DNA of 64,000 bases from a virus. Taxonomy: Duplodnaviria; Caudoviricetes. Each line of letters begins with the position of its first letter. Position 1 is the first letter of the stretch. A model generated the notes under the pieces. It was given only the letters and a program-made list of their open reading frames with translations. It searched no databases and had not been told where the DNA came from. The stretch covers positions 2,569 to 66,568 of IMG/VR virus record IMGVR_UViG_3300027715_000146. One strand, written 5' to 3'. The position numbers and the translations under genes were made by a program. Positions 43,874-64,000 of the stretch are shown piece after piece.

Positions 43874-44275
43874 ATGTTTATTATAAAGAAAGAGTCTCAA
43901 GAAACAGATGAATATCATCCGTATACCTCATACACCGACGGTCTTGATAAGAAACTTGTCCCGGACGATAATAAAACCACCCCGTTATATGCGAAATACG
44001 TATCCTGTGAAGGAGAATACGTCACAATTGAAGCGAGAATCAACGCTGGTGTAGTTACCATCATAATTACATCCCCCGGAGCAAAATATCAGGAAGAGAT
44101 CAATTCCCGGGAATTCATTAAAAAGCTGATAATCTACCATTATGATAAAGATAAAATCATATCAGTACTTAAAATAGAGGGGACTGGTCGTATGCAAACC
44201 ATAGATCTCCCCGTATCCACCCCTATATCACTCCATGAGATGGAAAGCCAGTTTATCGTCTCTATTGGACGATAA
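43874..44275 (+). CDS. Hypothetical protein, paralog of 43498..43848
   Basis: See paralog; GAAGGTG upstream. Confidence 0.55.
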   Translation: MFIIKKESQETDEYHPYTSYTDGLDKKLVPDDNKTTPLYAKYVSCEGEYVTIEARINAGVVTIIITSPGAKYQEEINSREFIKKLIIYHYDKDKIISVLKIEGTGRMQTIDLPVSTPISLHEMESQFIVSIGR

Positions 44276-44289
44276 CCTTTATCTCTTTT
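44274..44289 (+). promoter_or_regulatory. AACCTTTATCTCTTTT promoter-like motif
   Basis: ATG at 44308. Confidence 0.55.
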
Positions 44290-44307
44290 TACTACAAATT
44301 AAATATC

Positions 44308-44487
44308 ATGCGTCCGGTAGATATGTTATTTCCAAAATGCACAGGATTAAGATCTGAATATATTTGTCCGATGTGTAAAAAGCCTGTAGATACCAAATCA
44401 TTTACTGATGAACTATCCAAAACAGAGTTCACATTATCAGGACTCTGTCAGCAATGCCAAGATAAGGTGTTTAAATATGAAGAATAA
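44308..44487 (+). CDS. Small Zn-finger protein (CPMC...LSGLCQQCQD)
   Basis: 59 aa with two CxxC pairs; overlaps the HNH start. Confidence 0.65.
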   Translation: MRPVDMLFPKCTGLRSEYICPMCKKPVDTKSFTDELSKTEFTLSGLCQQCQDKVFKYEE

Positions 44488-45148
44488 ATGCCGGATTTGT
44501 GGGAAACCCGTCACCAAAGTTGAGTACAATGGGTTATGCAAAACCCATGCTCTTCGAAAAAAGCAATTCGGAAACCCGTATCTCTACAACGCCAAACAGT
44601 CATCATCGACATACTGGGTGTTAATTGATGAACGCCTTAAGTCCGGGGAAACATCCATCACCAAGCGAGGAAGAGCATACGCTCTTGCGGATATTGAATT
44701 CATCACTCCGGATATGATTCAGGCGGGGAAGCTGCTAAAAGATACCAGTCGGTATGAACGGTTTCCGAAACCGTATCCCGCTGAAGAGGTATTATCCAAA
44801 GTGATCCTTGATATGGATAAGAAGACCGCTGATAAATTCGGCATGGTGGATTTCGATGGTAATATGGTGAATATGGCATCTGATCGGTATAAATGTTTTA
44901 AAGTGAACGGGTGCTCCTGCGTTGCATGCGGTCTGACAGGGACGCATTTCTATCTGGAACGCACTTCCCCCGATATCCGGTTCCATTTCAACCTCTATGC
45001 CATTGATGAATCCGGTCAGGAGAGAATGATCACAAAAGATCATATCGTTCCTAAATCCAAAGGGGGGAAAGACACCATAGACAATTATCAGACCATGTGC
45101 AAGGAGTGTAACGAACGAAAGGGGAATCTGATGGAAACATTTATATAA
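44477..45148 (+). CDS. HNH endonuclease
   Basis: TKDHIVPKSKGG....NYQTMCKECNERKGN; CVAC; N-terminal CRIC..LCKTH. ATG 44477 preferred. Confidence 0.85.
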   Translation: MKNKCRICGKPVTKVEYNGLCKTHALRKKQFGNPYLYNAKQSSSTYWVLIDERLKSGETSITKRGRAYALADIEFITPDMIQAGKLLKDTSRYERFPKPYPAEEVLSKVILDMDKKTADKFGMVDFDGNMVNMASDRYKCFKVNGCSCVACGLTGTHFYLERTSPDIRFHFNLYAIDESGQERMITKDHIVPKSKGGKDTIDNYQTMCKECNERKGNLMETFI

Positions 45149-45264
45149 TTACTCAAACAACGTATATTTTGTAGTTTTACCTGATGGAAACTACCTCCAT
45201 GGTCGGCCGGAGTTGTGGCATCAGGACAGCCTGACGAGGTTGCAACCTCTGAAGGATTCCCTGT

Positions 45265-45349
45265 GGTGAGATGGTAGAGTGGTCGATTACACTGGTCTTG
45301 AAAACCAGCGGATTGAAAGATTCCAGAGGTTCAAATCCTCTTCTCACCG
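45265..45349 (+). tRNA. tRNA-Ser(UGA), no encoded CCA
   Basis: Acceptor GGTGAGA/TCTCACC; anticodon arm CTGGT-CTTGAAA-ACCAG; long variable arm; TTCAAAT T loop; G73. Confidence 0.92.
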
Positions 45350-45367
45350 TCCCGTAGGTGAAAAGAA

Positions 45368-45523
45368 ATGCTAACAGAAGCAGAAAAGCGAAAGCGTAAA
45401 CTTGCAGAATCATCAGTTCCGGATATGGGTTACATTGGAACCGCCAGTCTTGGAGCCAGTGACTGTGGAACACATTCATGTGGCTGTGATTCATGCGGAT
45501 GTGATGGTTCCGGAGGGTGTTAA
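45368..45523 (+). CDS. 51-aa peptide with six C-terminal cysteines
   Basis: AGGTG RBS; MLTEAEKRKRK...DCGTHSCGCDSCGCDGSGGC. Confidence 0.55.
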   Translation: MLTEAEKRKRKLAESSVPDMGYIGTASLGASDCGTHSCGCDSCGCDGSGGC

Positions 45524-45536
45524 ACCCTCATTTTCA

Positions 45537-45624
45537 GCCAGTGTAGCCTAGTGGCAAAGGCACCTGTCTTGTATCAGCAATGCAAGATAACAGGAGATCG
45601 TGAGTTCAATCCTCACCGCTGGCT
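45537..45624 (+). tRNA. tRNA-Thr(UGU) with 15-nt canonical 37/38 intron (45574-45588)
   Basis: Acceptor GCCAGTG/CGCTGGC. BHB motif: CTTG/CAAG central helix with TA^T and AT^A bulges. U73. Confidence 0.9.
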
Positions 45625-45695
45625 CTTCCATCGGCGATCCATTGCGTACGAATGGTGAGGTGGTGGGCGGCAAAGGAGTAATTACCCTTGCCTTA

Positions 45696-45764
45696 ATCGG
45701 GGTAGTGTAGTTGGGCCTATCATGGAGTGATCCTCTGACACGGGTTCAAATCCCGTTCCCGATA
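45696..45764 (+). ncRNA. tRNA-like RNA with collapsed anticodon arm (Gln-like body)
   Basis: Acceptor ATCGGGG/TCCCGAT, D arm and T arm ACGGG-TTCAAAT-CCCGT are intact. The anticodon arm is only GAG-TGATC-CTC (11 nt). Confidence 0.75.
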
Positions 45765-45772
45765 TCTCGCAT

Positions 45773-45855
45773 GTCACGGTATGCAAGTGGTATGCAGCAC
45801 CGTTGGAAACGGTGTGTCCAGAAATGGATCGTAGGTTCAATCCCTACCCGTGACG
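45773..45855 (+). tRNA. tRNA-Ser(GGA), no encoded CCA
   Basis: Acceptor GTCACGG/CCGTGAC; CACCG-TTGGAAA-CGGTG; long variable arm; G73. Confidence 0.88.
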
Positions 45856-45862
45856 TATTGAA

Positions 45863-45878
45863 AACCTTTATCTCTTTT
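45863..45878 (+). promoter_or_regulatory. AACCTTTATCTCTTTT promoter-like motif upstream of rtcB
   Basis: ATG at 45898. Confidence 0.55.
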
Positions 45879-45897
45879 CTCATCATACTATCAGTAA

Positions 45898-47103
45898 ATG
45901 ATATCGATCACTGGTAAATACGCAAATGCGGATATCTTTACGGATCAGGTAGAAGATGATGCAATAGCACAGATTACTGATTTATGTAATAATGTTGCAT
46001 CGGAGGGGAGTGCCATCAAGATCATGCCCGATGTGCACCCGGGGAATGGATGCACGATTGGCACAACCATGACCATTACTGACCGGGTTGTACCGAATCT
46101 GGTAGGAGTTGACATATCCTGCGGCATTTTATGCACCTGTCTTGGGGAAGTAGAGATTGATCTCCCCCGACTGGATCATCAGATTAAACGCTCAATCCCA
46201 TCCGGATTTTATAGTCGGAAAACCGTTCACTCCCGGGCCGATAATGTGGATCTCACCGAACTCCGGTGTGCTGAAAAACTCACCAAACCGATTGATTCTG
46301 CAAGATATCAATTAGGAACGCTCGGAGGAGGGAATCATTTCATTTCCATCGAGGAAAACGAATTAGGAGTGAAATACTTGCTTATTCACTCTGGATCCCG
46401 GAACATTGGGAAACAGGTTGCTGAATATTATCAGAAACTTGCTATCGACGAATGCCGCAAAAACACCGACGTAATGCGGGCCGAAATCATCCGGACAAAT
46501 AAAGAGAACGGTACTCCGGATCTTATCCAATCACAGTTGGATGCCATGCCTCGATTAGTTGAAGATCTGGCATACTTACACCGGGAGAGCCAATCATTCC
46601 ACGACTACCTGCATGATATGACTATCATGTCACGCTACGCTGCATTGAACCGGAATATCATCGCCGAAGAGATCATCCGGAATACTCCTGAACTGACTGG
46701 AAGTACTTACGACTGGTTCCAAACAGTACATAATTACATTGATCCCGCCACGATGACCCTTCGAAAAGGAGCAATTTCTGCACAAGAAGGGGAAATGGTA
46801 ACCATCCCGATGAATATGCGGGACGGGAGTATCATTGCAGTTGGTAAAGGGAACCCGGACTGGAACTACTCAGCTCCGCATGGAGCTGGTCGGATCATGG
46901 GAAGGAGAGAAGCAAAACGTATTCTTGATTTCGAAACCTTCCGACAAAGTATGCAGGGAATATACTCTTCATCCGTATTTCCCGGAACCATCGATGAATC
47001 TCCTATGGTCTACAAACCAATGGAAGATATTTTGAAATATATCGGGGATACTGTCGAAATACAGTCAATCATCAAACCGGTATATAATTTCAAAGCACAA
47101 TAA
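45898..47103 (+). CDS. rtcB: RtcB RNA ligase
   Basis: MPDVH, VGVDISCG, GTLGGGNHF, HSGSR, HNYI, RKGA, SAPHGAGR, DESPMVYK. Confidence 0.95.
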   Translation: MISITGKYANADIFTDQVEDDAIAQITDLCNNVASEGSAIKIMPDVHPGNGCTIGTTMTITDRVVPNLVGVDISCGILCTCLGEVEIDLPRLDHQIKRSIPSGFYSRKTVHSRADNVDLTELRCAEKLTKPIDSARYQLGTLGGGNHFISIEENELGVKYLLIHSGSRNIGKQVAEYYQKLAIDECRKNTDVMRAEIIRTNKENGTPDLIQSQLDAMPRLVEDLAYLHRESQSFHDYLHDMTIMSRYAALNRNIIAEEIIRNTPELTGSTYDWFQTVHNYIDPATMTLRKGAISAQEGEMVTIPMNMRDGSIIAVGKGNPDWNYSAPHGAGRIMGRREAKRILDFETFRQSMQGIYSSSVFPGTIDESPMVYKPMEDILKYIGDTVEIQSIIKPVYNFKAQ

Positions 47104-47133
47104 ATTAATACTCTTTTTTACAATACTTAGTAT

Positions 47134-48141
47134 ATGAGAAAACTTGCATCTGTGCAAGAGATCATCTCCGTGGAACATCATCCGGACGCTGATCGACTTG
47201 ATATCGTAACGGTATTAGGATGGCATTGTATCACCGGTCGCGACGAATTCAAACCCGGTGATAAGTGTGTGTATTTTGAGATCGACTCACTTCTCCCACC
47301 CGGTAACCCGGTATTTGAGTTCTGTGCACGGTATCAGTATCGCATTCGTACCCAGAGACTCCGGGGCATCATCAGTCAGGGGTTATGCATGCCTGCATCA
47401 GTGTTCAACATGGAAAACCTTCCGATTGATTCTGATGTGACGGATCTCATCGGAGTGACGAAGTATGATCCACCGGTACCCACCTGTCTTGATGGGGTAG
47501 CCAGAGGACATTTCCCGTCATCGATACCTAAAACCGATGAGACCCGGGTACAGAACCTACAGGATATGCTGAACCGGCACGTCGGACTACCCTGTATCAT
47601 CACTGAGAAGCTTGACGGGACCAGCGTTACCATTTATCTCCGGGATGGGGTATTCGGTGCTTGCTCCCGGAACCTTGATCTGATTGAAGATGAAAACAAC
47701 GCCATCTGGCAAGCGGTCCGGGATAAGAATTATGAGCAGGTGCTCCGGGGCATATATGAGATGTCAGGTATTGAACTCGCCTTACAGGGAGAGTTAATCG
47801 GCCCCGGTATTGCAGAGAACCGATACAAACTCGAAAAACGGGATATCTATCTGTTCAACATATTTGATATCACCAATCAGGCGTATTTCATCACTTCCAA
47901 TGTGGAGTATTTCTGCATCACGAATCACTACCACATGGTCCCCATCATCAGTAAAGAGTTTACCCTTACCAATGACATCGATTCACTGGTATCCCTATCC
48001 AATGGAGTGTCAGAACTGAATCCGAAAGTGAAGCGGGAAGGTATTGTGATCCGCCCTCATGAGGAGATGTATGATATCGCCGTAGGACGACTCTCCTTCA
48101 AAGTGGTAAGTCCGGAATATCTACTGAAGCACAATGATTAA
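47134..48141 (+). CDS. ATP-dependent RNA ligase, DRB0094/Rnl family
   Basis: MRKLAS...I..H.DAD.L, YFEIDS, LRG.ISQGL, KTDE.R.QN, TEKLDGTS, QGE..GPGI, REGIV, SFKV.S. Confidence 0.88.
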   Translation: MRKLASVQEIISVEHHPDADRLDIVTVLGWHCITGRDEFKPGDKCVYFEIDSLLPPGNPVFEFCARYQYRIRTQRLRGIISQGLCMPASVFNMENLPIDSDVTDLIGVTKYDPPVPTCLDGVARGHFPSSIPKTDETRVQNLQDMLNRHVGLPCIITEKLDGTSVTIYLRDGVFGACSRNLDLIEDENNAIWQAVRDKNYEQVLRGIYEMSGIELALQGELIGPGIAENRYKLEKRDIYLFNIFDITNQAYFITSNVEYFCITNHYHMVPIISKEFTLTNDIDSLVSLSNGVSELNPKVKREGIVIRPHEEMYDIAVGRLSFKVVSPEYLLKHND

Positions 48142-48313
48142 GTATACGGAAGAAGCACTCGAATCATTAGTCGGTCTCACGGTCCCGGTAACAAAAGACG
48201 GGGTTGAGATCGGCACGGCAACGGTAAAACGTTGCAATAAAGGTAAAAAGGGTGTGTTATGTGCTGATATCTTCATTCCGGGTCATGATACGATAGAATC
48301 ACAGATTCTCTAA
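48134..48313 (+). CDS. 59-aa hypothetical protein
   Basis: ATG overlaps the ligase end; fills the gap. Confidence 0.45.
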   Translation: MIKYTEEALESLVGLTVPVTKDGVEIGTATVKRCNKGKKGVLCADIFIPGHDTIESQIL

Positions 48314-48562
48314 ATACTCTTTTATTTTCCCGGATAATGATTCTGCAAGAATAGGATTATTAACAATCTTTTCTGACATTACCGTTTGTTCAGGAGTGAG
48401 ATCTTGTACAAATATCCGGATCATACCATACGGATCAGTATGTAATATCTTGCAATTTTCAGAACAATATCCGTCTTCATGATATTCAACATACCCGCAA
48501 CAACCCCAATCATAATGGAATCGATCCCCGCAAAAAATACAAGTTTTATTCAAAAAACTCAT
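48299..48562 (-). CDS. Small Cys-rich hypothetical protein
   Basis: CIFC...CC...YCSENC. Confidence 0.5.
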   Translation of the reverse strand: MSFLNKTCIFCGDRFHYDWGCCGYVEYHEDGYCSENCKILHTDPYGMIRIFVQDLTPEQTVMSEKIVNNPILAESLSGKIKEYLENL

Positions 48563-48855
48563 TCAAGTCCCATACCTTTTAGCGTATCCTGACTGAGTAG
48601 GGACAAGTCCCTTACCATGATCATTGCTGCCGGGATGGTAGCCTTTTCATTGAATCCGAAGATATTGAGCAGGTTATCTGTCTTGAAAATATATCCGGAT
48701 ACGGTGAGTGGGATCTTATACCATGGCCTCTTTTTTGATGGGGATAATGCTTCCCCATCAACGGCTGTGGATATAATGAACGCCTTCACCCCGTTCTTCT
48801 CTGCCTTGTCGATATATTCATGCATTTCAGCCGGAGTCAAGGCATATTCACTCAT
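48559..48855 (-). CDS. Hypothetical protein
   Basis: Coupled to neighbours in the minus-strand operon. Confidence 0.55.
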   Translation of the reverse strand: MSEYALTPAEMHEYIDKAEKNGVKAFIISTAVDGEALSPSKKRPWYKIPLTVSGYIFKTDNLLNIFGFNEKATIPAAMIMVRDLSLLSQDTLKGMGLE

Positions 48856-49615
48856 TGTCCGCTCCTTTGAATATCATCGGTGCTCCATCAAATATGACAT
48901 CAACTGCATTCTCCAATGCATATAACCGGTCCGGGAAGTTGTCAACGATCTCATACACCCACTTTACCCGGCCATCCAGTTGCTTCATGGCCTTTTTGAT
49001 ATACACACCCTGTTTATACTGCCTTGGTAAATCATTCCAGTTGGATCCTGCCGCAATGATCATATCATGCAACTGAGGCATCTTCTTCCCCTCAAGATCC
49101 CGGTGCCGGTATAGGGATCTCGCTAGCATCTGCACCGAGTTCTTCAATGCATCGTTTCCTCTCCAGATTAATGCATTAACCGCTTCGGTTTTTGTAGGAA
49201 CCTGAAATGCCCGGCAATCAAATATCCCAAACGCCGGTCGCCCTTTATCCACATTGTAGTCACCCATACAATTGTTGAAATAGGCAGTAGCCATGGATGA
49301 TAATGATGATATGATCTTGTGGTGTTTTCCATCAAAGTAGATTGGCGACTCGATATTATCAGAATATAACACCAAGGTGATCTCATCAGACTGGGTATAT
49401 GCAATAACCGCCTGCGTCTCATGCGCAAGATACGATGCAGTCATTTTCATTGCAATGGCAAAAGTGGCATCAAACGGCCGGTCAAATGACTTCGTATACG
49501 TGTGAAATGATTTTCCATCGAGCCTTACAATCACGGGGAGATATGGCATGAATTTGTGACAAGTGGTCGCTGACTCATACCATTTCATCCGGTCGCCTAA
49601 ATCGTCTTTTGACAT
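48848..49615 (-). CDS. thg1: tRNA-His guanylyltransferase Thg1-like protein (3'-5' polymerase)
   Basis: DRMK.YE, RLDGKSFH, QSDEITL, FDCR, NSVQM, G..WNDLP...KQG. Start at MSKDDL. Confidence 0.9.
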   Translation of the reverse strand: MSKDDLGDRMKWYESATTCHKFMPYLPVIVRLDGKSFHTYTKSFDRPFDATFAIAMKMTASYLAHETQAVIAYTQSDEITLVLYSDNIESPIYFDGKHHKIISSLSSMATAYFNNCMGDYNVDKGRPAFGIFDCRAFQVPTKTEAVNALIWRGNDALKNSVQMLARSLYRHRDLEGKKMPQLHDMIIAAGSNWNDLPRQYKQGVYIKKAMKQLDGRVKWVYEIVDNFPDRLYALENAVDVIFDGAPMIFKGADNE

Positions 49616-49815
49616 GTTACGTCCAGAACACAATACATTTCTCCCCGGCTGACTTTTGTCTCAACCGGTAGTCGGGTTGCTTTTCTAATATCGCTCTCCG
49701 ATATCAACTTCGTTACCATTACACCGGGTAGAGCGTCAGGATAAATGATCCGGGTCTTTATTCCGGCCCGATTCATATCCTGCATAAACTGTTGTATAGC
49801 ACCGGCCTTGTCCAT
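49597..49815 (-). CDS. Hypothetical protein
   Basis: MDKAG start chosen to avoid overlap with the upstream gene. Confidence 0.4.
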   Translation of the reverse strand: MDKAGAIQQFMQDMNRAGIKTRIIYPDALPGVMVTKLISESDIRKATRLPVETKVSRGEMYCVLDVTCQKTI

Positions 49816-49850
49816 TTTACTACAAATTAATTCAGCTGCAATATATTTAA

Positions 49851-50537
49851 TTATTGCGGTACCCATGACTTGTATGCTTCTCCCATGTCGATGAGCCACC
49901 ATTTCCCGTTGATATCTCTCATAAAATCAACAGACAGGTCTAAATCTACCATACCCCATCGATACCGGAGTACATTGTAAACGGTATTGCAATAACCCCG
50001 GAGCAGATCGCTATCACTATCTGATATCTGACTGATCTGTTCAATGTAATCATCCGGGATGTGATTATTATCTACCGCGAGCCGGGTCCAATAGGGGGAG
50101 CCGTTGTCAACTACCCCATCAATGATAAAGTATCTCCGCTCAGTACCGATAGGGAGCCCATTCAATAACCGATGGGTTCCGTCTGACTGGATAAATTCGC
50201 GTATGCATATCTCTTCAACCGGTTTATCTTCCTCATATGAACTCATGATCAACTGATGCAGGTTTTGATAGAGTTCCGCATCAGTATTAATGATACACAC
50301 CCCGTCAAACTTCGCTGAGTAATATGACGTCCGCATGAAACATGGATACCCCATATCCGCACACGCCTGCCGGATCTGGGAGATCTTTTTATCGACTTTA
50401 TGACTCTCTTCGGAGAGAAACGTCATGCATTCTTTATGGGAAAATGGGATGACGATCGTCTCCGGTTGGGGAATAACCGGGGTAGATAACCGGATATTCG
50501 GATACCAGTATTCCAATGATGTCGGGTTCATCTGCAC
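49851..50537 (-). CDS. ATP-grasp-fold protein
   Basis: GYPCFMRT...SAK, IREFI, ERRYFI, SVDF, WWLIDM follow the ATP-grasp motif order. Confidence 0.55.
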   Translation of the reverse strand: MQMNPTSLEYWYPNIRLSTPVIPQPETIVIPFSHKECMTFLSEESHKVDKKISQIRQACADMGYPCFMRTSYYSAKFDGVCIINTDAELYQNLHQLIMSSYEEDKPVEEICIREFIQSDGTHRLLNGLPIGTERRYFIIDGVVDNGSPYWTRLAVDNNHIPDDYIEQISQISDSDSDLLRGYCNTVYNVLRYRWGMVDLDLSVDFMRDINGKWWLIDMGEAYKSWVPQ

Positions 50538-50923
50538 CAGCGACTCTTCAATGATTTCCGGAGATCCTTCAACCGTTCCTTTCGCTGGTCATACGCGAGA
50601 TCATTCTCATCTTTCAGCTCTTTGTATTTACCTTTGTATAGATTTGTTTCTTCCATAATCCGGTTAATCACCCGGATCTTCACACAGTCATCAACATCAT
50701 CTTCCCACCGGTAATCATGCCAGATGGACACACTCTCTTTCTTAAACCACCCGGTCTTTACAATGATGCTGATATCATTATAGCATACATCAATTCCGTC
50801 GAAAACAGGGATTTGGCAAAACGTCTCTTTCTTTTTCGGATACTTCAAATACAAATAGTCGAAGTATGCTGCAGTAAAGTTATGACATACTGATCCGACT
50901 GTTCCATTGTCTATGGAAACCAT
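50528..50923 (-). CDS. Hypothetical protein
   Basis: 131-aa ORF heading the minus-strand operon. Confidence 0.5.
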   Translation of the reverse strand: MVSIDNGTVGSVCHNFTAAYFDYLYLKYPKKKETFCQIPVFDGIDVCYNDISIIVKTGWFKKESVSIWHDYRWEDDVDDCVKIRVINRIMEETNLYKGKYKELKDENDLAYDQRKERLKDLRKSLKSRWCR

Positions 50924-50950
50924 GCTATTATATTGGGGTATTGACAGATA

Positions 50951-51562
50951 ATGATTATGTATTCGCTTATCTTAACGGATCCACCATGGCAATATACTGA
51001 TAAAGCGTCGGCTGGCAAACGAGGAGCTGAATTCAAGTATCCATGTATGTCAATATCCGAATTACAGGATATGAAACCGTATATCGATTCTATATCTGCA
51101 CCTGATTCGGTAATGTATATGTGGACAACCGGCCCGATGTTACTTGTAGCCGGTGCGTTACTCGAATACTGGGGATTTACCTATAAGACAACTCCGTTCC
51201 TCTGGATCAAGACGAATACAAACCCGATCCATCCCGAAACATCCGTAATGCTTGAGACTGTGATGGGTGATGACGGGATGTGCACCACCCGGGGAGATTT
51301 CATGGGGATGGGGAATCATGTCCGGAGCAATGGGGAGATGGTGTTACTTGGTATCAAGGGGAAGGGAATCAAGCGAGTAAATTACGCAATCAGGCAACCC
51401 ATCATCAGTCCCCGTCGTCAACACTCCCGAAAACCAGAGGAGGTCTATCAGCGCCTCGAACACTTATACGGCGACATCCCCCGTATTGAGATGTTTTCTC
51501 GATGTAAACGGCCCGGATGGGACCAGCACGGGAATCAGATGGAAATGTTTATAACAAAATAA
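50951..51562 (+). CDS. MT-A70 family adenine methyltransferase
   Basis: ILTDPPW, YMWTT, WGF.YKT..F.W.K, G..VRSN.E, HSRKP, RIEMFSR. Confidence 0.9.
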   Translation: MIMYSLILTDPPWQYTDKASAGKRGAEFKYPCMSISELQDMKPYIDSISAPDSVMYMWTTGPMLLVAGALLEYWGFTYKTTPFLWIKTNTNPIHPETSVMLETVMGDDGMCTTRGDFMGMGNHVRSNGEMVLLGIKGKGIKRVNYAIRQPIISPRRQHSRKPEEVYQRLEHLYGDIPRIEMFSRCKRPGWDQHGNQMEMFITK

Positions 51563-51687
51563 ATACAACATAGTAGTGTAGTAACTCACTAGGTGGTGAG
51601 GTTCGCTGCCTATAGAGTATTACAAATTCGATAGGTAGTTAGGCAAGTAAATTAGATGTATTGGCAGGCCGGAAAGACGGCCAACTT

Positions 51688-51770
51688 AACACCGTCGGAC
51701 AGATGGCTAGTCCACCAGACTTAAGATCTGGCGCCGAAGGGCATCGAGCGTTCAAGTCGCTCCGGTGTTA
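51688..51770 (+). tRNA. tRNA-Leu(UAA), no encoded CCA
   Basis: Acceptor AACACCG/CGGTGTT; D stem GGAC/GTCC; CCAGA-CTTAAGA-TCTGG; variable arm; A73. Confidence 0.9.
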
Positions 51771-51877
51771 TTTCAGCAGATTGAATGCTGCTGGATCGGT
51801 CAATCCGGTGACCCCTTCTAGGATTGTCGATAGGGTATGGGGCGTAAGAAGATGAAAATCTTCTTCCGATAAGCGTA

Positions 51878-51947
51878 AGGCCCGTGGTGTAATGCAAAAC
51901 ACGCCTGACGTAGTCAGGAGATAGGGGTTCAAATCCCTCCGGGCCTA
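51878..51947 (+). ncRNA. tRNA-like RNA with 5-nt (or GUA triloop) anticodon loop
   Basis: AGGCCCG/CGGGCCT acceptor; GTGT/ACAC D stem; CCTGA-CGTAG-TCAGG; TTCAAAT T loop. Confidence 0.75.
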
Positions 51948-52106
51948 CTGGGTCTTGAGCATTGGTGAAGACCCTACGATTCAGTTGATTGAACGTGAAT
52001 CATTTGAAACGGATACAAAATGCCGACCTCTTTGCAGTTTTGATGGGCGTTACCATAGAAAACTGATATGGTTGTAGATATCGGCAAAGATCTACCGATG
52101 CAACTG

Positions 52107-52173
52107 GACCGATAGAGTGTTCGGAACACAGGCCGACAACGGCCGGACATGGGTTCGACTCCCAGATCGGTTT
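52107..52173 (+). ncRNA. Minimal tRNA-like RNA with 4-nt anticodon loop
   Basis: GACCGAT/ATCGGTT acceptor; GTGT-TCGGA-ACAC; GGCCG-ACAA-CGGCC; TGGG-TTCGACT-CCCA. Confidence 0.7.
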
Positions 52174-53062
52174 TCCCAGAAATGGGGATAGTTACTCAGT
52201 GGCGGGATCGTAAACCCCCAAGACTTACCACATCGGGCGAAGAGTCAGCCCCTTAATTGGAGTAACTACAATGGTTGTAAACCCACCAATGCATGGGTGG
52301 CTCAACCGGTAAACCAAGTTTCCCATATAAATGCTCGGTGGGTAGGGTTCGAATACCGAACTTGGTTGTCAGATACCGCACAACAGGTTGACTGAAAGAG
52401 GATCTGGAGATTGCAATTCGATACGTGCATCATCGGTTGCAATACAAACATTCCGGAGGTGTCTGAATGCACACCCGTCATCTGTATGGATGACTGTTAC
52501 TGGTCCACGGAAACCAGAGGATTTAGATTGTTTATCCAAAAAAACAGGAAGTTCAATCCCGGAACGTACAGGGGGTTTTAGAGAGGCATTCTCCCAAAAG
52601 AAGGCTCTATCTCGGTTGGCAGTGATCTAGTTCGAGAACTGCACCCATTGGATGGATGTCCATCGATGCCACACGGTGCGTCGTAATAACTGATCCGTGA
52701 CTTACTCATCATGTGATCCGATGATGGGTATCTGAAGATATCTGAAGGCTCACCCCCTTCGTATCTTATTGGCCGGGTAATAACCGGCGGGTTGACGTTA
52801 AATCACTCATGCATGTGTCTCCAAAACACATCGAGCGGGAACGACTCGTACTCGTTTCTAATTATCACACCGGGAGTATGGTTCACCCCCATATACCGGC
52901 TTGTCCTGTGTCCGTGGCATAGGGATTTAAAGGAGGTTGAACCCTCAGAAAACTCCCCGGAAGGAAAACCGGGATCGGTAGGGTACCGATAAAACCAAAA
53001 CCGGGTAAATCCACGGATTATCCAACCTATTCTTATCACGGTTCAGAAACAGATATGATAGT

Positions 53063-53278
53063 ATGAGTGATGCAGATAAAATAATTCGAATTCAAGCGGA
53101 TAGGCTCGCTGAATTATTAGGACTGGAAAAAGGCACGTATATCCCGGCTGAAGATCTAAAACTGATATCAACCACCTGTCCCGGTATGGATATCATTATT
53201 CAGCAAAAACCGGTTACCATTTCGACGAGAGCCCATGTTCTCGCTATGCTATTGCTGGAAAAAGTTAATAGTCGATGA
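53063..53278 (+). CDS. Hypothetical protein
   Basis: 71-aa ATG ORF converging on the helicase. Confidence 0.5.
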   Translation: MSDADKIIRIQADRLAELLGLEKGTYIPAEDLKLISTTCPGMDIIIQQKPVTISTRAHVLAMLLLEKVNSR

Positions 53279-54803
53279 TAGATATCGGTGCCCGCTTTCG
53301 CATCTCCGCTACCCGATCCTTCATCTTCTCTTCTTTTTTGGTTGCCACTGCAAGATAGACATCATCCACGGTATCAGTAGTAACCATCGTAATGACTCTT
53401 CCATTCCCAAACCGACCGGTTCTCCCCCGTCGCTGGATGCTCCTGACTTCCGATGGCACCGGCTCATAAAAGATGATCAGATCCACTGATGGGATATCCA
53501 ACCCTTCCTCAGCTACTGATGTTGCCACCATCACCTGATACTCCCCATCAGCGAACTTCTTCACCGTTTCAATCTGTTTCTTTTGAGACAGGCCCTCATC
53601 ATCTGACTTGCTTGCCTGACCAACAAACCGGACCACTGATACCCCTTCTTTCTTCAACATGCTCACGATATTGGATACCGTGTCCCGGAGGGAGGCAAAG
53701 ATTAAAATCCGGGAATCCGGATTCTCATCAAGTTCCCGTTTCACCATGGCCGGAAGATGAGTGATCTTTGGATGCTGTTCATCCACCCATGTTTCTGCCA
53801 TTGCCATAATCTCTTTAAATTCAGGAGAGTTTGCTAATCGCACATCGGCTTTTGATGCTCCGGTTTTGATTTTATAGAGATATCGCTGTAATGCAATCGT
53901 TCCCTGACACTCGCATAATCCTACCCCATGTCTTACTTTCATGATCTCTGCATGATAACTCACTGCCTGATACCCGATAGATTTCATCTCCGGATCATCG
54001 CTTTGGATCATCCCATCGATCGCCATCTTCACCCCGTTTAATACTTTCATCGGCGGGTTAATGACATTGGGCAAATTAAACCCATAGGTTTTCAAAATAC
54101 TGAACCGGTTCTGCAATATTTGCGAGAATAGTGTACTGGTCAGTCGGAGATCATCCGGTAATGTAAATCGTACAATCTCCATCTCTTTTTTATGCAGATA
54201 GGGTGATACATCCGGATCGGTTTCAGATCGTGATTCCACATGAGCAATATCAAAATTCTTCTTAATCTGATCGATCTTTGATTTATCCCCTCCGGGAGAG
54301 GCGGTTAATGCCAGCATCTGTCCATCCGGATTCTGTTGCATGTATATCTCTGATACAAACCGGTACGCGTAATCCCCGACTCCCCGGTGACACTCATCAA
54401 ATACGATAAGGGAGAAATCCTTCAATGAGTATACCTGATTATTTAGATCATTCTGAATGGTCTGAGGGGTTGCCAATACCACCCGGGATGCATCCCATAT
54501 ACCTTTCCTCTTCTTCACCGGAATTGTACCGGTAAGCAGGTTCACCTGATCAGTATCCAGTAATAGATGCTTTCGGAAATATACTTCATGCTGAGACACC
54601 AACGGTTTTGTCGGTGCCATCATGAGTATCTTCCCATATTGTAACCGATGAGCCATCACTAATAATGAGACTGGGGTCTTACCTAACCCTGTTGGTAAAA
54701 CTACGAGCGTAGAGCGGTTTTTCGCAGACTCTGCAATTGTCACCTGATACTCACGTCTTCCTACGGTTCCCGGCCGGATCATCGGGTGAGTAATATATTC
54801 CAT
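53265..54803 (-). CDS. Hef/FANCM-like SF2 helicase without nuclease domain
   Basis: RREYQ, VLPTGLGKT, DECH, ALTASPG, ATSVAEEGLDIP, IQRRGRTGR. Confidence 0.9.
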   Translation of the reverse strand: MEYITHPMIRPGTVGRREYQVTIAESAKNRSTLVVLPTGLGKTPVSLLVMAHRLQYGKILMMAPTKPLVSQHEVYFRKHLLLDTDQVNLLTGTIPVKKRKGIWDASRVVLATPQTIQNDLNNQVYSLKDFSLIVFDECHRGVGDYAYRFVSEIYMQQNPDGQMLALTASPGGDKSKIDQIKKNFDIAHVESRSETDPDVSPYLHKKEMEIVRFTLPDDLRLTSTLFSQILQNRFSILKTYGFNLPNVINPPMKVLNGVKMAIDGMIQSDDPEMKSIGYQAVSYHAEIMKVRHGVGLCECQGTIALQRYLYKIKTGASKADVRLANSPEFKEIMAMAETWVDEQHPKITHLPAMVKRELDENPDSRILIFASLRDTVSNIVSMLKKEGVSVVRFVGQASKSDDEGLSQKKQIETVKKFADGEYQVMVATSVAEEGLDIPSVDLIIFYEPVPSEVRSIQRRGRTGRFGNGRVITMVTTDTVDDVYLAVATKKEEKMKDRVAEMRKRAPISIIDY

Positions 54804-55194: not shown

Positions 55195-55676
55195 TTACAG
55201 GTATACTACCAGTTGAAGAGCGATGTAAACGACCGTGTCGATGGGCCGGAGACCAATGTTATCATTTTAATGGAAGTGATGATACCCCTCACCCTGATAA
55301 AGGATTCCCCTTTTCATGCAGAATGGGAAACTCGGGTATCATCCTACGTATGTTTGGGAACCCACATGACATCACATGTGTTCACAACATCACAAAAAGT
55401 GAACTGGAGAAGGTAATGCATTTTGCCAATGAAGGGCGGTTTACTATCGAACGGTGGATCTATCTGAATGACGGTCCTCGGCATCTCGGGGTAACAGATA
55501 CAGCGACTTATGTGGATGGAACCTGTGTGGATAAACCGAACCCATTGACGATTCAACCGAAGAAACCTCACTTTGATGGAATTGATGATTATATTCACAC
55601 TCATGAACCCAATGCTCCGACAACCATTCAGATATCGAAAGATATTTCCATCACGATAACAAAACATTCTGGATGA
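55191..55676 (+). CDS. Hypothetical protein
   Basis: Cys-containing N-terminus; coupled in operon. Confidence 0.5.
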   Translation: MITGILPVEERCKRPCRWAGDQCYHFNGSDDTPHPDKGFPFSCRMGNSGIILRMFGNPHDITCVHNITKSELEKVMHFANEGRFTIERWIYLNDGPRHLGVTDTATYVDGTCVDKPNPLTIQPKKPHFDGIDDYIHTHEPNAPTTIQISKDISITITKHSG

Positions 55677-56194
55677 AGATCATCATCGTTGGTGAATCGG
55701 GTTCCGGAAAAGACACTATCCTTTCTTTATTTAAACAAGTGCCTGATTGGCATATCATCATCTCCCGGACCACTCGCCCCCGGAGGGAAGGTGAGCCTGC
55801 TGATGCATATATCTTTTCAACTGAACAGGATTATCTTGAGCAGAATGCACACGGGAGAATATTTGAAGAGATTATTTTTAATTATAACCGGTACTGGACG
55901 TTAAGTGATGACTATATCCATGAGAGCTGGGTTATCATCACAGAGACTGCCGGCGCATTCACGCTGAAAGACCGCTTTCCGGATGCATTCATCCTGTATG
56001 TGAAGACGGATCGGGCCATTCGCATCGAGCGTGCCGGCATTGACCGGGTAAACCGAGATGCAACCACATTCAGCTGCTTCCCATGCGATTATGTCATCGA
56101 GAACAATGGGGATAAACAGGAGTTAGTGGACCGGTTGAAACGGGCATTAACCCATTTCTCCTACATTCAATCCAGCCGGACATCAATCATATGA
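55673..56194 (+). CDS. Guanylate-kinase-like NMP kinase
   Basis: GESGSGKDT P-loop; ISRTTRPRREGE; Y.F; F....Y.T. Confidence 0.8.
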   Translation: MKIIIVGESGSGKDTILSLFKQVPDWHIIISRTTRPRREGEPADAYIFSTEQDYLEQNAHGRIFEEIIFNYNRYWTLSDDYIHESWVIITETAGAFTLKDRFPDAFILYVKTDRAIRIERAGIDRVNRDATTFSCFPCDYVIENNGDKQELVDRLKRALTHFSYIQSSRTSII

Positions 56195-56895
56195 CGGTTT
56201 ACTGCGTTGGCGATATCCACGGACATCTCGTCCAGTTAAAACAGGCGATATCCCGTTCCCCATTTCAACCGGATCAGGATACCATTATTTCATTAGGAGA
56301 TATCGTAGACGGCGGGTATGAATCCTCCGGGGTGATAGAATATTTATCCAGTCTCCCGGACTGTATCCTTATTAAAGGAAACCATGACTGCAGCACAAAT
56401 GATACCGGAGTGACAGACTCACCCGGATGGTTTTCCGGATGGATCCGAAACGGGTTTGAACTCCCGTCATGGGTATGTCAGGGCGGGTATAACACCATGG
56501 CGTCATATGATTTTGATTACCGGAACGTCCCGGAGCATCATAAACTCTTCATTCAATCCGCATATCCGTATTATGTCTACAACAATATGGTATTTGTGCA
56601 TGGAGGGATAAAAGAGCGAACGCCTCTGGATAAGCAAGACTGGGAAGACATGATGTGGGATCGGAGTATGGTATATAAATACACCCGACCGGGATACACC
56701 CGGAAATTCCCCAAATATGACCGGGTGTTCGTCGGCCATACTACGGCACAATATCTGAGAAATGATCTTAAATACATGCAACCAGTGATTCAGAATAATG
56801 TTGTGGCAATGGATACGGGAGGATTCTGCAACGGGAAGATCACGGTAATGAATGTAGATACGCTGGAATACTGGCAGTCGAATATCATCAATTAA
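56191..56895 (+). CDS. Calcineurin-like metallophosphoesterase
   Basis: GDIHG, LGDIVDGG, KGNHD, FVHGG, VGHT, MDTG. Confidence 0.9.
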   Translation: MTVYCVGDIHGHLVQLKQAISRSPFQPDQDTIISLGDIVDGGYESSGVIEYLSSLPDCILIKGNHDCSTNDTGVTDSPGWFSGWIRNGFELPSWVCQGGYNTMASYDFDYRNVPEHHKLFIQSAYPYYVYNNMVFVHGGIKERTPLDKQDWEDMMWDRSMVYKYTRPGYTRKFPKYDRVFVGHTTAQYLRNDLKYMQPVIQNNVVAMDTGGFCNGKITVMNVDTLEYWQSNIIN

Positions 56896-57838: not shown

Positions 57839-58090
57839 TTAATCTTCCATTACATCTTTTATTATTGATTCCACGTTCGGATTGAAGATATATACCCAAC
57901 CATCCTCTTCCGCTATTACATCGAACCCCATCGTTTCTACCGTTGCCGGAGGTTTCCCAAATAAAGTACGACTGTCGCACATATCAACCGCACCATCAGC
58001 AGCCTTTTTAAACCGCTGGTTGGCATATACTCCGTTAAAATAAGCAATACCGATGTTCGTGCCCCATTCTTCAAATCCAGTTTTAGTCAT
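57839..58090 (-). CDS. Hypothetical protein
   Basis: MTKTGF start in ATGA overlap with the ligase stop. Confidence 0.5.
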   Translation of the reverse strand: MTKTGFEEWGTNIGIAYFNGVYANQRFKKAADGAVDMCDSRTLFGKPPATVETMGFDVIAEEDGWVYIFNPNVESIIKDVMED

Positions 58091-58965
58091 GATGCATCCA
58101 TATCGTTTATATCCCTGAATCCTAAAAATACCGGGAACCGGGGGAGATCTTTCTCTCCTGATTTCTGCGATTTGTATTTGACCAACTTCCCGACATAGGT
58201 ATACTGGTTCTCCCAAATCTGTTTTCTCAGTGCGGCATCAAACCCAGTCCCTATGGAAAATTCCACTCCGGTTACAACATCCCGTACCAGTAGATTCCCT
58301 AACGTCCCGGCAGGAACCTTTCCATCTTTACAGGATGCCCGCTTTGCATACCCGAACGCGTCCTGTTCCAACTCATTCTGGTTATGCATCTGCTCTTCCA
58401 TTCCGATCACCACGGCTTCTGCATCAGTAAACCGTTTGATCTTCAACAGATACCCTTCCTTCACTGTAGACCTACCGCATTTATATGGTCCCGCGAGAGA
58501 GCGGATCATTACCCCTTCGTATCCGGAATTCAGACACTTGTCTTCATACTGCAAGAGTTCATCATAGGTATTGATACGATCAGGTAACACCTTCACGACA
58601 TATGGCACGTGATCCAGTGGTAACTGTTCAAGTAACCGCATTCTCTCCTGATATGGTTCGTGTAATGATGTGGATACGTAATCAAATACGTAGTAGATGA
58701 AGTCCGGTGAACCGTCCCTGCTTGCTACCGATGATGACGTGTCCTGAAAGGTAACCCCGGCGATAATTTCGCCATCGACCCCGGAGGGAAGGTGAGCCTC
58801 TATCTGATTCCTGATATGGTGGTTCGCAATCGGTTTGAAATTCCGGGATACACATTTCCCGTCAATTACCAGACACCGGATCCCATCCAGCTTCGGACTG
58901 GCAAGCACCGGGAATGCAATCTTTTCTATGACTGCTGTATCAGCAAGCATCGGCCGTGTTATCAT
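58087..58965 (-). CDS. Minimal ATP-dependent DNA ligase
   Basis: SPKLDGIRC, DGE, YVFD, YEGVMIR, LLKIKRF, OB-fold GTGF..PRFP. Confidence 0.92.
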   Translation of the reverse strand: MITRPMLADTAVIEKIAFPVLASPKLDGIRCLVIDGKCVSRNFKPIANHHIRNQIEAHLPSGVDGEIIAGVTFQDTSSSVASRDGSPDFIYYVFDYVSTSLHEPYQERMRLLEQLPLDHVPYVVKVLPDRINTYDELLQYEDKCLNSGYEGVMIRSLAGPYKCGRSTVKEGYLLKIKRFTDAEAVVIGMEEQMHNQNELEQDAFGYAKRASCKDGKVPAGTLGNLLVRDVVTGVEFSIGTGFDAALRKQIWENQYTYVGKLVKYKSQKSGEKDLPRFPVFLGFRDINDMDAS

Positions 58966-58974: not shown

Positions 58975-59313
58975 TTATGCTTCGATAATAGATAAATGAT
59001 ACCGATCGGCGTAATACATGATATCTTTCACATCCGGGGAATCAGGGTCAAATACGAGCATGTGTGACGACTGTTGAATCATGGAGAGATCCCGACGCAA
59101 TACCGCACCGTTTCCATACTTCTGTTCTGGATAATACCGGGTATACATTCCTGTAGGGCCGATAACCTCTCCGACAACCATGCATACATCACCAGTATCT
59201 CCGGAAAGTATTCTCTCCGGCCCGATATCACACATGGCGTCAATCAACGTATCAACGATATAATCCCGATCCGGATATCGTTCCGGACCGGCTACCATCA
59301 AAACAGACAACAA
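58975..59313 (-). CDS. SLOG/YspA (DUF2493)-like protein
   Basis: VAGPERY.D...I...L, ILSGD, YG.GA..RR...M. Confidence 0.55.
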   Translation of the reverse strand: MLSVLMVAGPERYPDRDYIVDTLIDAMCDIGPERILSGDTGDVCMVVGEVIGPTGMYTRYYPEQKYGNGAVLRRDLSMIQQSSHMLVFDPDSPDVKDIMYYADRYHLSIIEA

Positions 59314-59392
59314 TGGGATGACGGATTCGAACCGTCAATACGAACAATGGATCAGATCGCCCGAATATCTGATATGCATCAGCCATACCCAT
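59312..59392 (-). ncRNA. Degenerate tRNA-like element
   Basis: Minus strand: perfect T arm GACGG-TTCGAAT-CCGTC, partial acceptor ATGGG/CCCAT, stem ATCAGAT-ATTCGGGCG-ATCTGAT. Confidence 0.5.
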
Positions 59393-63313: not shown

Positions 63314-64000
63314 ATGCACGATGATATCCTTGATGCGTTACGGTATACCCGAGAACGCATCGTATCGGATTTACAGCAATCCAAACCTTATATCCCGGAT
63401 GGTTCACCATCTGATTTTGAATCAGGTCTTCATGTCAACTATAATGAACTTTCCAAATATATCCCGATCAATGTATTATTCGCCTTCCACCGGATGTCCC
63501 GTCAGGGAGAATGTTATATTGTCGGTGGTGCCGCACTGAATGTAGCAGCCCGGATATACCAGATGCTCCATTATGCTCCCGGTGACCCGAATGACTGGGA
63601 TATGTTTACTTCAGTTCACCCACAGCGTATCATGGAACTCTTCCCGGATGCTGTTCCAATCAGTGGTCAGGATGGACGAGTGTATACGGTAACGTTACCG
63701 AAGCATGATATCGAGATCAGCACGTTCAGAAAAGATGGAAAACGTGACACTTTTGGAGAGAACGTTATTGAACATCTCAATACCTGTGACTTTACGATCA
63801 ATGCGATCGCCATGACCCCTCACGGTCTTCTGATATCTCAACAGACGCTGGATGATATGAAAGAGAAACGACTCCGGTGTGTGGGAGATGCCAATGACCG
63901 GATCAACGAAGACAGTAACCGGGTAGTCAGGGCAATCCGGTTTGCATCCCGATACAATATGACCCTTGATGACGACCTGAGGCGAATCCTTACCCAATAT
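63314..64000 (+). CDS. Class II CCA-adding/poly(A)-polymerase-family nucleotidyltransferase, 3' truncated by window
   Basis: Own translation: CYIVGG, DWD, EISTFR, DFTINAIA, LRCVG...R..EDSNRVVRAIRFA. Frame open to the window end. Confidence 0.85.
   Translation, partial: MHDDILDALRYTRERIVSDLQQSKPYIPDGSPSDFESGLHVNYNELSKYIPINVLFAFHRMSRQGECYIVGGAALNVAARIYQMLHYAPGDPNDWDMFTSVHPQRIMELFPDAVPISGQDGRVYTVTLPKHDIEISTFRKDGKRDTFGENVIEHLNTCDFTINAIAMTPHGLLISQQTLDDMKEKRLRCVGDANDRINEDSNRVVRAIRFASRYNMTLDDDLRRILTQY

Follow-up and report, generated by a model that had tools for sequence, protein, structure and literature searches.

Several tRNA-shaped RNAs that take no part in decoding have been described. YrlA-type Y RNAs contain a tRNA mimic domain devoid of an anticodon and are encoded beside rsr and rtcB. 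The mascRNA and MEN-beta tRNA-like RNAs have a shortened anticodon arm; RNase P and RNase Z excise them from a long transcript, and they receive a CCA tail. Phage T4 encodes in its tRNA cluster two stable non-decoding RNAs, species 1 and species 2 (rnaC and rnaD), which are matured from a tRNA precursor and for which we know of no function. A variant tRNA of phage T5 reportedly acts against PARIS, i.e., a phage tRNA escapes a tRNA-targeting defence. Finally, the t-elements of Haloferax volcanii (upstream of the 5S rRNA) and of plant mitochondria are processing signals that resemble tRNAs and that both RNase P and tRNase Z cut. These non-decoding folds retain acceptor and T arms and adjoin the RNA whose end they make (PMC4326828; PMC1920247).

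The window analysed here, the whole 64-kb stretch of viral DNA, contains three plus-strand elements (el1, el2 and el3). Each combines a 7-bp acceptor stem with D and T arms, and the anticodon arms have the lengths first reported (11, 15 and 14 nt) and short loops. In el1 (45696..45764; Rfam tRNA 36.9 bits), the anticodon arm (45725-45735, 11 nt) has 3 bp and a loop of 5 nt, and the D stem contains a single U-U. The arm of el2 (51878..51947; Rfam tRNA 47.0 bits, fold z -3.7) spans 15 nt (51904-51918) and can be drawn with 5 bp and a 5-nt loop or with 6 bp and a 3-nt loop, the minimum-energy fold being the latter; in its D loop the GG pair is missing its second G (G19), and the T stem contains an A-C mismatch. 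That of el3 (52107..52173; found by structural scan, with a cloverleaf as minimum-energy fold, z -2.2) covers 14 nt (52131-52144), with 5 bp and a tetraloop; position 8 is A, not U, the spacer between acceptor and D stems has 3 nt, the D loop is very short and the T stem has 4 bp. The original prediction that elbow and acceptor are preserved is subject to the exceptions just listed in all three elements.

Both el1 and el2 exceed the gathering score of the Rfam tRNA model (29), and their large deletions relative to it are confined to the anticodon arm. The same model gives no match to el3 at E<=10, the sole match being to the T arm of tmRNA (13.5 bits). With default settings, ARAGORN calls only el2 among the three, as 'Tyr gta'; with thresholds lowered to 80%, it draws all of them, each with an abnormal anticodon arm. 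A structural scan of both strands of the window, requiring a 7-bp acceptor stem flush with the T arm, gave exactly seven matches, the four real tRNAs and the three elements, where 0.32 are expected in first-order random sequence.

The elements are mutually unrelated, as originally noted: they are just 61-63% alike, which is no higher than their likeness to unrelated tRNAs, so that none is a recent copy of another. They most likely descend from tRNA genes and have lost the ability to decode. The signature formed by the D and T arms of el1 has at least 120 genome matches, nearly all in Archaea and 95% annotated as tRNA-Asp(GTC). Its body is thus that of an archaeal tRNA-Asp, from which the GUC anticodon and G73 are absent (the discriminator is A) and whose acceptor stem is unlike that of tRNA-Asp yet fully paired. 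The first pair of el2 is A1-U72, not the C1-G72 of archaeal tRNA-Tyr. None of the seven tRNA-like genes encodes CCA.

The three elements are distributed over two arrays. The first is headed by a TATA-like box (45140..45147), its putative promoter, which is the sole such motif in 45100-45900 and one of seven strict matches on the plus strand of the window. It is followed on this strand by a canonical class II tRNA-Ser(UGA) (45264..45352; ARAGORN; Rfam 59.5 bits) and by tRNA-Thr(UGU) (45537..45625; Rfam 57.7 bits), which is homologous to the intron-less tRNA-Thr of the relative L001 and carries a 15-nt intron at position 37/38 (45574-45588). The inserted sequence can be folded into a canonical bulge-helix-bulge (helix, 3-nt bulge, 4-bp helix, 3-nt bulge, helix). 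Because of this intron and of the archaeal tRNA-Asp-like body of el1, these features indicate that the host of the virus is an archaeon. Then come el1, tRNA-Ser(GGA) (45772..45856; ARAGORN; Rfam 52.3 bits), which starts 7 nt past el1, and, 42 nt beyond it, the gene of the RNA ligase RtcB (45898..47103; Pfam PF01139, E 2.7e-60).

The second array, also on the plus strand, is anchored in all relatives by a syntenic MT-A70 methyltransferase gene (50951..51562; Pfam). Its TATA-like box (51548..51554, the only one in 51500-53100) and a conserved 10-nt leader some 22-26 nt downstream are common to five related arrays. They precede a canonical class II tRNA-Leu(UAA) (51687..51771; ARAGORN; Rfam 50.0 bits), homologous to the tRNA-Leu of L001, then el2, el3 and a Y-shaped tRNA-like module (52311..52369) made of a long stem, two arms and a T-loop-like motif. 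This module is kept in L082, with four compensated pairs in the closing stem. Directly after it lies a conserved RNA domain, D (52372..52466), also present in L337 and L339, which over its first 39 nt shares 97% identity with L093 and whose reading frame is not conserved. Farther downstream, a minihelix resembling an acceptor and T arm (52870..52899; from its fold) is found immediately 5' of a conserved structured block, block 2 (52902..53007), which is 79% identical to positions 7415-7524 of L082 and shows compensatory hairpin changes. At the position corresponding to the minihelix, L082 has a full cloverleaf that lacks an anticodon (7340-7412; z -2.9).

No orthologues of the three elements were found in the available relatives (~60% protein identity). 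In the matching non-coding array after MT-A70, these viruses have further tRNA-like modules that lack an anticodon and whose 'anticodon' hairpins are closed. In module b (L093, L337 and L339), 7 of the 26 pairs are compensated, as are 3 of 16 in module c, and the interior arms of both covary too. Since these modules are conserved with compensatory changes, the anticodon-less modules of the lineage appear to be a selected class and not simply products of decay; by analogy, selection may also act on el1-3. The covariation sought in related viruses is present in analogous modules; the elements themselves have no orthologues there. Nor did we find intact versions with lesions over all arms: the relatives have intact tRNAs unrelated to el1-3 plus their own modules, in which the anomaly is again the anticodon arm. 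The non-canonical share of tRNA-like matches is about half in the lineage versus at most 20% in 1.8 Mb of other phage loci (p 0.0035 in a crude Fisher test).

We tentatively favour, at a little short of an even chance, the explanation that el1-3 behave as t-elements do, as modules that RNase P and tRNase Z excise and that serve to punctuate the array transcripts or to stabilise them. Because each of the two arrays is headed by a single TATA-like box, the elements and the four tRNA genes would be co-transcribed as long array transcripts. Real tRNAs are located inside arrays, both the tRNA-Leu of array 2 and the tRNA-Asp of L339, and therefore the transcripts should need processing by tRNA-end enzymes. 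Host RNase P would cut the elements at the 5' side and tRNase Z at the 3' side, and CCA addition would fall to the host enzyme or to a virus-encoded class II nucleotidyltransferase of the CCA-adding/poly(A) polymerase family (63314..64000, plus strand, truncated by the window end; Pfam PolyA_pol head domain, E 7e-9). Such end-defining, stabilising punctuation could release tRNAs, small structured RNAs, conserved RNA domains and the rtcB message, and the excised look-alike would persist as a stable by-product. This is consistent with a tRNA shape beyond chance that has a non-decoding arm, and with the intact stems of el1 and el2, whose charging and decoding identity is gone.

The likeness to t-elements extends to the retained acceptor and T arms, to the archaeal domain and to the layout. 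Module b of L093 and the Y module of the window both end at most ~6 nt from domain D, and the L082 cloverleaf and the window minihelix abut block 2 in the same way, as the Haloferax t-element lies upstream of 5S rRNA (PMC4326828). Archaeal t-elements, a precedent missing from the original prediction, fit this layout at least as well as the decoy that it proposed. In contrast to t-elements, the modules are viral, several per array and interleaved with real tRNAs, most are complete four-arm cloverleaves with a closed hairpin replacing the anticodon arm, and their cleavage is a prediction. Other observations weigh against this explanation. The tRNA-Ser that follows el1 has its own RNase P site, so an extra one seems superfluous and the benefit of processing el1 is not obvious. 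The spacers flanking el2 and el3 lack conservation across relatives and may hold nothing worth releasing, and the case for selection on el1-3 is purely one of analogy. Modules b and c covary in their interior arms as well, which a pure top-half handle would not need, and the small lesions off the anticodon arm (D loop of el2; position 8 and T stem of el3) resemble early decay. Among the eukaryotic and phage parallels, el2 matches the mascRNA/MEN-beta family (Rfam RF01684) below threshold (23.7 bits versus a gathering score of 42.5), and this family is eukaryotic and has no homology with el2. The T4 species 1 and 2 RNAs, which are longer and come from a phage of bacteria, are set beside el1-3 by description only.

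A possible, if rather doubtful, alternative is that the elements are free-standing tRNA mimics whose excised RNA is a decoy, sponge or inhibitor of a host factor that binds tRNA, for example a defence nuclease that targets tRNA, a modification enzyme, a synthetase or a CCA enzyme. In relatives, several modules stand in tandem as conserved units, along with their D arm and the hairpin found in place of an anticodon arm, and nothing is conserved in the spacers between them. Moreover, the virus has a very full tRNA repair and maturation kit, which suggests that attack on tRNA by the host is of consequence for it: RtcB, two more ligases, one of them an ATP-dependent RNA ligase (47134..48141, plus strand; Pfam RNA_ligase and PHA02142 OB domain), a Thg1-like 3'-5' nucleotidyltransferase (48848..49633, minus strand; Pfam PF04446, E 2e-29), a kinase, a phosphoesterase and the CCA-type nucleotidyltransferase. 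The anti-nuclease role originally proposed is nonetheless questionable, its support being these neighbouring RNA-repair genes. PrrC, colicins E5 and D and many VapC toxins recognise the anticodon loop, and an RNA without this loop would not be bound by them, which weakens the decoy logic for precisely the enzymes that had been named. In addition, el1-3 are conserved in none of the available relatives. Defence-escaping phage tRNAs are likewise virus-encoded, and this genome is evidently concerned with tRNA damage; however, they are functional tRNAs whose anticodon loops are altered and which take the place of the cleaved host tRNA, whereas el1-3 do not decode. Similarly, YrlA has a long Ro-binding helix in place of the anticodon arm where el1-3 have a short hairpin, no Rfam match to YrlA or Y RNA was obtained at E<=10, and the record has no Ro/TROVE gene.

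We consider it unlikely that el1-3 are recently inactivated tRNA genes, i.e., neutral relics of a fast-turning array that are perhaps still processed through their intact top half and have no selected function. Gene gain and loss is ongoing, since the arrays have undergone rearrangement and the tRNA set of this virus (Ser, Thr, Ser, Leu) differs greatly from that of its nearest relative (Leu, Trp, Tyr, Thr, Met, Cys). The missing orthologues and the minor lesions beyond the anticodon arm would also suit relics, as would a graded series from el2 (47 bits) through el1 (37 bits) to el3 (no match) and the more eroded T-arm remnants at 52311-52369 and 59313-59391. The latter, a tentative call from a T-arm scan, is a perfect T arm with a partial acceptor stem and a weak fold on the minus strand; it adjoins the start of a minus-strand ORF and the ligase operon. 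Furthermore, only elements that retain the acceptor and T arms can be noticed at all, and this ascertainment bias weakens the original claim that the same region was lost independently three times. Yet all four stems are still paired in each element, and three of the three lesions are small anticodon-arm deletions that leave a closed hairpin. The loss in el1 and el2 of the acceptor-end identity of their apparent isotypes with zero stem-breaking changes is hard to obtain by drift, dead DNA is seldom kept in virus genomes, and the analogous modules of relatives are under purifying selection with covariation. Plain decay is thus not the best account, as had been argued.

It is very improbable that at least el2 is a working, if odd, tRNA-Tyr(GUA), the form drawn by ARAGORN, in which an anticodon stem of 4 bp carries a loop of 7 nt. 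The default call, the Rfam score and the loop, in which G follows GUA as it does in L001's tRNA-Tyr, speak for it. However, the drawing requires a G-A pair, no nucleotide 26 and C at the near-universal U33, the minimum-energy fold closes the arm, and G19 is absent. The C1-G72 pair that archaeal TyrRS requires is present in the tRNA-Tyr of L001 and replaced in el2. Decoding is impossible for el1 and el3.

That the shortened arms are small assembly indels is scarcely credible, since a Logan contig of run SRR5693545, made with a different assembler from possibly the same reads, is 100% identical over 6,684 bp (window 45718-52401, spanning el2, el3 and the anticodon arm of el1), the contig is recorded in three samples, and random indels are not expected to give perfect hairpins thrice.

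Taken by analogy with the modules of its relatives, el1-3 are probably deliberate tRNA-shaped RNA modules and not merely dead genes. An archaeal virus carries, among its real tRNA genes, three genes that are tRNA-shaped yet unable to read codons.

Three elements on the plus strand have the shape of a tRNA with a shrunken anticodon arm: el1 (45696-45764), el2 (51878-51947) and el3 (52107-52173). El1 and el2 score 36.9 and 47.0 bits against the Rfam tRNA model (RF00005), both above its gathering score of 29 bits, and their deletions against this model lie in the anticodon arm only; el3 has no match to it at E<=10. The minimum free energy fold is a cloverleaf for el2 and el3. A structural scan of both strands of the 64-kb window for acceptor stems of 7 bp that directly adjoin a T arm found exactly 7 places, i.e., the 4 tRNAs and el1-el3 (random first-order sequence gives 0.32). 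The anticodon arms measure 11 nt (45725-45735), 15 nt (51904-51918) and 14 nt (52131-52144), just as in the original prediction, with loops of 5 nt in el1, 5 or 3 nt in el2 and 4 nt in el3. The prediction also held that the acceptor stem and the elbow were preserved. This is accurate for the acceptor stems, which are paired at 7/7 positions in all three elements, but the elbow is imperfect, as el2 lacks G19 and el3 has A8. The D and anticodon stems are paired, as are 5/5 (el1), 4/5 (el2) and 4/5 (el3) positions of the T stems. Outside the anticodon arm, the lesions are only minor and comprise, beyond these elbow defects, A-C in the T stem of el2 and, in el3, one extra nucleotide ahead of a short D arm and a 4-bp T stem. 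A Logan contig (run SRR5693545) is identical to the window over 45718-52401, which makes small assembly indels an unlikely source of the shortened arms.

Judged by their anticodon arms and by identity elements, these are not decoding tRNAs. None has the decoding layout (5-bp anticodon stem, 7-nt loop, U33 and 3-nt anticodon). Aspartate identity depends on G73 plus GUC, and archaeal tyrosine identity on C1-G72. The D-arm and T-arm signature of el1 has at least 120 matches in the species-genome collection; among those listed, nearly all are from Archaea and 95% are called tRNA-Asp(GTC) by ARAGORN. El1 shares with archaeal tRNA-Asp the D arm, position 26, the first three anticodon-stem pairs, the variable loop and the T arm, and its anticodon arm is six nucleotides shorter. 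Its acceptor stem differs at most positions from those of the tRNA-Asp matches and is still fully paired; its discriminator is A and it has no GUC, while the cellular tRNA-Asp genes with the same body all have G73 among the matches examined. With the discriminator and acceptor stem changed and the anticodon gone, both ends of the aspartate identity are thus lost without the loss of a helix. El1 is not orthologous to the tRNA-Asp of one relative (L339), since the bodies differ. In el2, the loop reads GUA then G, as in the tRNA-Tyr of the nearest relative (L001), the first pair is A1-U72 in place of the C1-G72 of tyrosine, and the arm forms 6 bp and a 3-nt loop; orthology with that tRNA-Tyr is ruled out by 59% identity and different acceptor stems. 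When five archaeal genomes were searched by BLAST for a progenitor of el2 or el3, nothing beyond the generic T arm matched. A reading as remnants of phage attachment sites can also be set aside: the elements are cloverleaves of full length from which an internal piece is deleted, not tRNA end fragments. The A1-U72 pair, rare among elongator tRNAs, opens 3/7 of the tRNA-like genes, namely el1 (45696), tRNA-Leu (51688) and el2 (51878), and the acceptor stem of el1 may resemble that of the archaeal initiator tRNA.

The window covers most of a linear 66.6-kb IMG/VR record, about 70% complete, and three lines of sequence evidence point to an archaeal host. The first is tRNA-Thr(UGU) (45537-45625), clearly homologous to an intron-less tRNA-Thr of the nearest relative, which carries a 15-nt insertion (45574-45588) precisely at the 37/38 junction. 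Judging from its sequence, the insertion would fold into the anticodon stem, a 3-nt bulge, a 4-bp helix, a 3-nt bulge and 2 bp capped by a GNRA loop; this is the bulge-helix-bulge splice motif in its canonical archaeal form. The second is the archaeal type of the nearest relative's tRNA-Tyr (short variable arm, C1-G72), and the third is the el1 signature, whose listed matches are nearly all from Archaea. The virus-borne archaeal intron adjoins a virus-borne RtcB, the archaeal splicing ligase, a notable pairing.

ARAGORN calls Ser(UGA), the intron-bearing Thr, Ser(GGA) and Leu(UAA), plus el2 as 'Tyr(gta)', and an encoded CCA is absent from all 7/7 tRNA-like genes of the window. These form two arrays, each headed by a single TATA-like box (45140 and 51548): tRNA-Ser(UGA), tRNA-Thr, el1 and tRNA-Ser(GGA) ahead of rtcB, and tRNA-Leu, el2 and el3 downstream of a gene for MT-A70. 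Around them are also encoded an RNA ligase, a Thg1-like enzyme, an R2K ATP-grasp protein (weak match), a P-loop kinase side by side with a metallophosphoesterase, a further ATP-dependent ligase nearby, and a class II CCA/poly(A)-type nucleotidyltransferase. The kinase, phosphoesterase and ligase (55673-56895 and 58087-58965, minus strand) are a Pnkp-like end-healing set, additional to RtcB, the RNA ligase and the Thg1-like enzyme. The nucleotidyltransferase (63314-64000, ending at the window edge) is of the bacterial/eukaryal-type class in an apparently archaeal virus. Between tRNA-Ser and tRNA-Thr lies a 51-codon ORF (45368-45523) with a Cys-rich C-terminus and repeated C-G/C-D motifs, which could encode a small metal-binding or modified peptide, or be spurious. 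On the minus strand, a perfect T arm joined to an incomplete acceptor stem (59313-59391) closes a non-coding tract of ~600 nt, ends exactly at the start of the minus-strand ORF/ligase operon and may be another processing module.

Searches with RtcB and MT-A70 queries of IMG/VR, JGI metagenomes and a set of 5.8 billion proteins gave no relative nearer than about 60% (<=64%) protein identity, besides copies of the same virus at 100%. None of the available relatives, including the nearest one in its array, has an orthologue of el1-el3. The 1.5-kb non-coding tract past MT-A70 is partly conserved in DNA in the related loci L082/L081, L093, L337 and L339/L340. The array occupies 51563-53062 in the window, 6616-7557 in L082, 3302-3961 in L093, 1286-2990 in L337 and 5622-7047 in L339, and 5/5 arrays open with a TATA-like box where the MT-A70 gene ends, followed, about 22-26 nt on, by a conserved leader. 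Two further stretches are conserved: domain D (52372-52466), closed by a conserved stem, and block 2 (52902-53007), with four covarying hairpins. No Rfam family matches the conserved array, and Rfam searches of eight relatives' loci downstream of MT-A70 returned nothing at E<=1.

The array spacers are mostly not conserved among relatives, whereas tRNA-like modules are. ARAGORN calls none of these modules a normal tRNA, and most have a closed hairpin at the site of the anticodon arm. Module b (L093, L337, L339) is a cloverleaf of 26 pairs with a 4-5-nt 'anticodon' hairpin loop and 7 compensated pairs. Modules c and Y are Y-shaped, with fewer arms: c (L337, L339) has 16 pairs, 3 of them compensated, and Y (window 52311-52369, and L082) has a long closing stem, two arms and 4 compensated pairs. 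Module a (L337, L339) has a 9-bp stem with a tetraloop and reaches 38.3 bits for the Rfam tRNA model in L339. An unnamed module with a 5-nt loop (L337 1890-1960) reaches 42.3 bits, another (L082 7340-7412) is a cloverleaf with 4 bp and a tetraloop, and module X of L001 is a Trp paralogue with 7 bp and a 5-nt loop. Module e of L339 has the same acceptor sequence as el3 and shares 21/25 T-arm/3' positions with it, making it a possible homologue over the top half only. By a crude count, non-canonical forms make up about half of the tRNA-like matches in this lineage, versus <=20% in 1.8 Mb of other phage loci. The original prediction had set selective loss of the anticodon arm against scattered decay, and the relatives do not refute it: no intact versions with scattered lesions were found among them, and the anomaly in their modules is again at the anticodon arm. 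Their intact tRNAs (Asp in L339, Tyr in L001) are unrelated to el1-el3. Exact-pattern scans of IMG/VR gave 0 matches each for the el1 signature, a 28-nt core of domain D and the hairpin of module b; a 17-nt block-2 motif had 67, all by chance except two known relatives. MAFFT gave no sensible alignment of the unrelated modules. Odd ARAGORN anticodons in relatives, 'Cys aca' with a 9-nt loop (L001 11300-11375) and '??? gacg' (L339 6005-6079), are really closed hairpins. A more distant RtcB-carrying viral contig, L002, has two group I introns (6770-7055 and 7889-8213; Rfam 74 and 53 bits).

We rank first, tentatively, a role for el1-el3 as punctuating and stabilising modules like t-elements. Since real tRNAs lie inside arrays with a single promoter, RNase P and tRNase Z would have to cleave the array transcripts. 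These enzymes and the CCA-adding enzymes need only the acceptor/T-arm half of a tRNA, and as el1-el3 keep this half, we infer that they are excised as tRNAs are. In Haloferax, tRNase Z cleavage at a t-element makes the 5' end of 5S rRNA (PMC4326828); t-elements of plant mitochondria are the other precedent (PMC1920247). The ranking rests on modules that similarly abut conserved RNA domains: module b of L093 and the Y module of the window end a few nucleotides before domain D, and the cloverleaf of L082 and a minihelix of the window do so before block 2. El1-el3 fit t-elements in fold, having a non-decoding tRNA-like fold with stacked acceptor stem and T arm, and, less clearly, partly in placement, with a partly conserved structured tract directly 3' of el3.

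Three observations weigh against the t-element role. El1 stands 7 nt ahead of a real tRNA only, the spacers around el2 are not conserved in relatives, and in modules b and c the interior arms covary too, which a pure handle would not need. The same observations favour a product that is the excised look-alike itself, acting as a mimic, sponge or decoy as first proposed. We regard this as rather doubtful, given that no target was found and that the logic is weak where a nuclease recognises the anticodon loop. A stronger version, which seems unlikely, is that the lineage encodes a whole set of tRNA mimics that can be neither cleaved nor charged, made via the tRNA-processing pathway and acting as RNAs themselves; they would, e.g., titrate or block defence nucleases of the host that target tRNA, or other enzymes that bind it, and so complement the several tRNA repair enzymes of the virus. 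It is likewise improbable that el1-el3 are relics, i.e., neutral tRNA pseudogenes. In favour of relics, they are lineage-specific singletons in arrays that turn over quickly, and recognition is biased to elements with an intact top half; against this, stem-breaking lesions across all arms were not found in them and the analogous modules of relatives are constrained.

Among known RNAs, YrlA and Y RNAs were rejected, as there is no Rfam match to them at E<=10 in 44000-54000 and no Ro gene (Ro60/Rsr, TROVE, PF05731, is absent from the 66.6-kb record, about 70% complete); YrlA has a Ro-binding helix, whereas the arm of el1-el3 is a short hairpin. The mascRNA-menRNA family (RF01684) was rejected as well, el2 scoring 23.7 bits (E 0.35) against a gathering score of 42.5. 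The species 1 and species 2 RNAs of T4 (rnaC, rnaD) are candidate functional analogues. Searches of the literature yielded no account of archaeal viruses with arrays of anticodon-less tRNA-like elements, and none of tRNA-like RNAs that serve as decoys for anticodon nucleases.

If the modules are selected, the tRNA shape serves this lineage of archaeal viruses as an RNA part that can be used again and again; each array would have one promoter, and its real tRNAs, look-alikes and conserved structured RNAs would be cut apart by the tRNA-end enzymes of the host. If true, this would extend to viral gene expression the t-element principle, so far found in the haloarchaeal rRNA operon and in plant mitochondria. 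The tRNA repair kit encoded beside the arrays ranks among the fullest seen in a virus (RtcB, two further ligases, a Thg1-like enzyme, a kinase plus a phosphoesterase, and a CCA-type enzyme). Since tRNA finders mislabel or miss the look-alikes (to ARAGORN, el2 is 'Tyr' and modules in relatives are '???'), tRNA censuses are unreliable for such viruses. If the mimics act on host proteins instead, they would represent RNA-based counter-defence of a new type.
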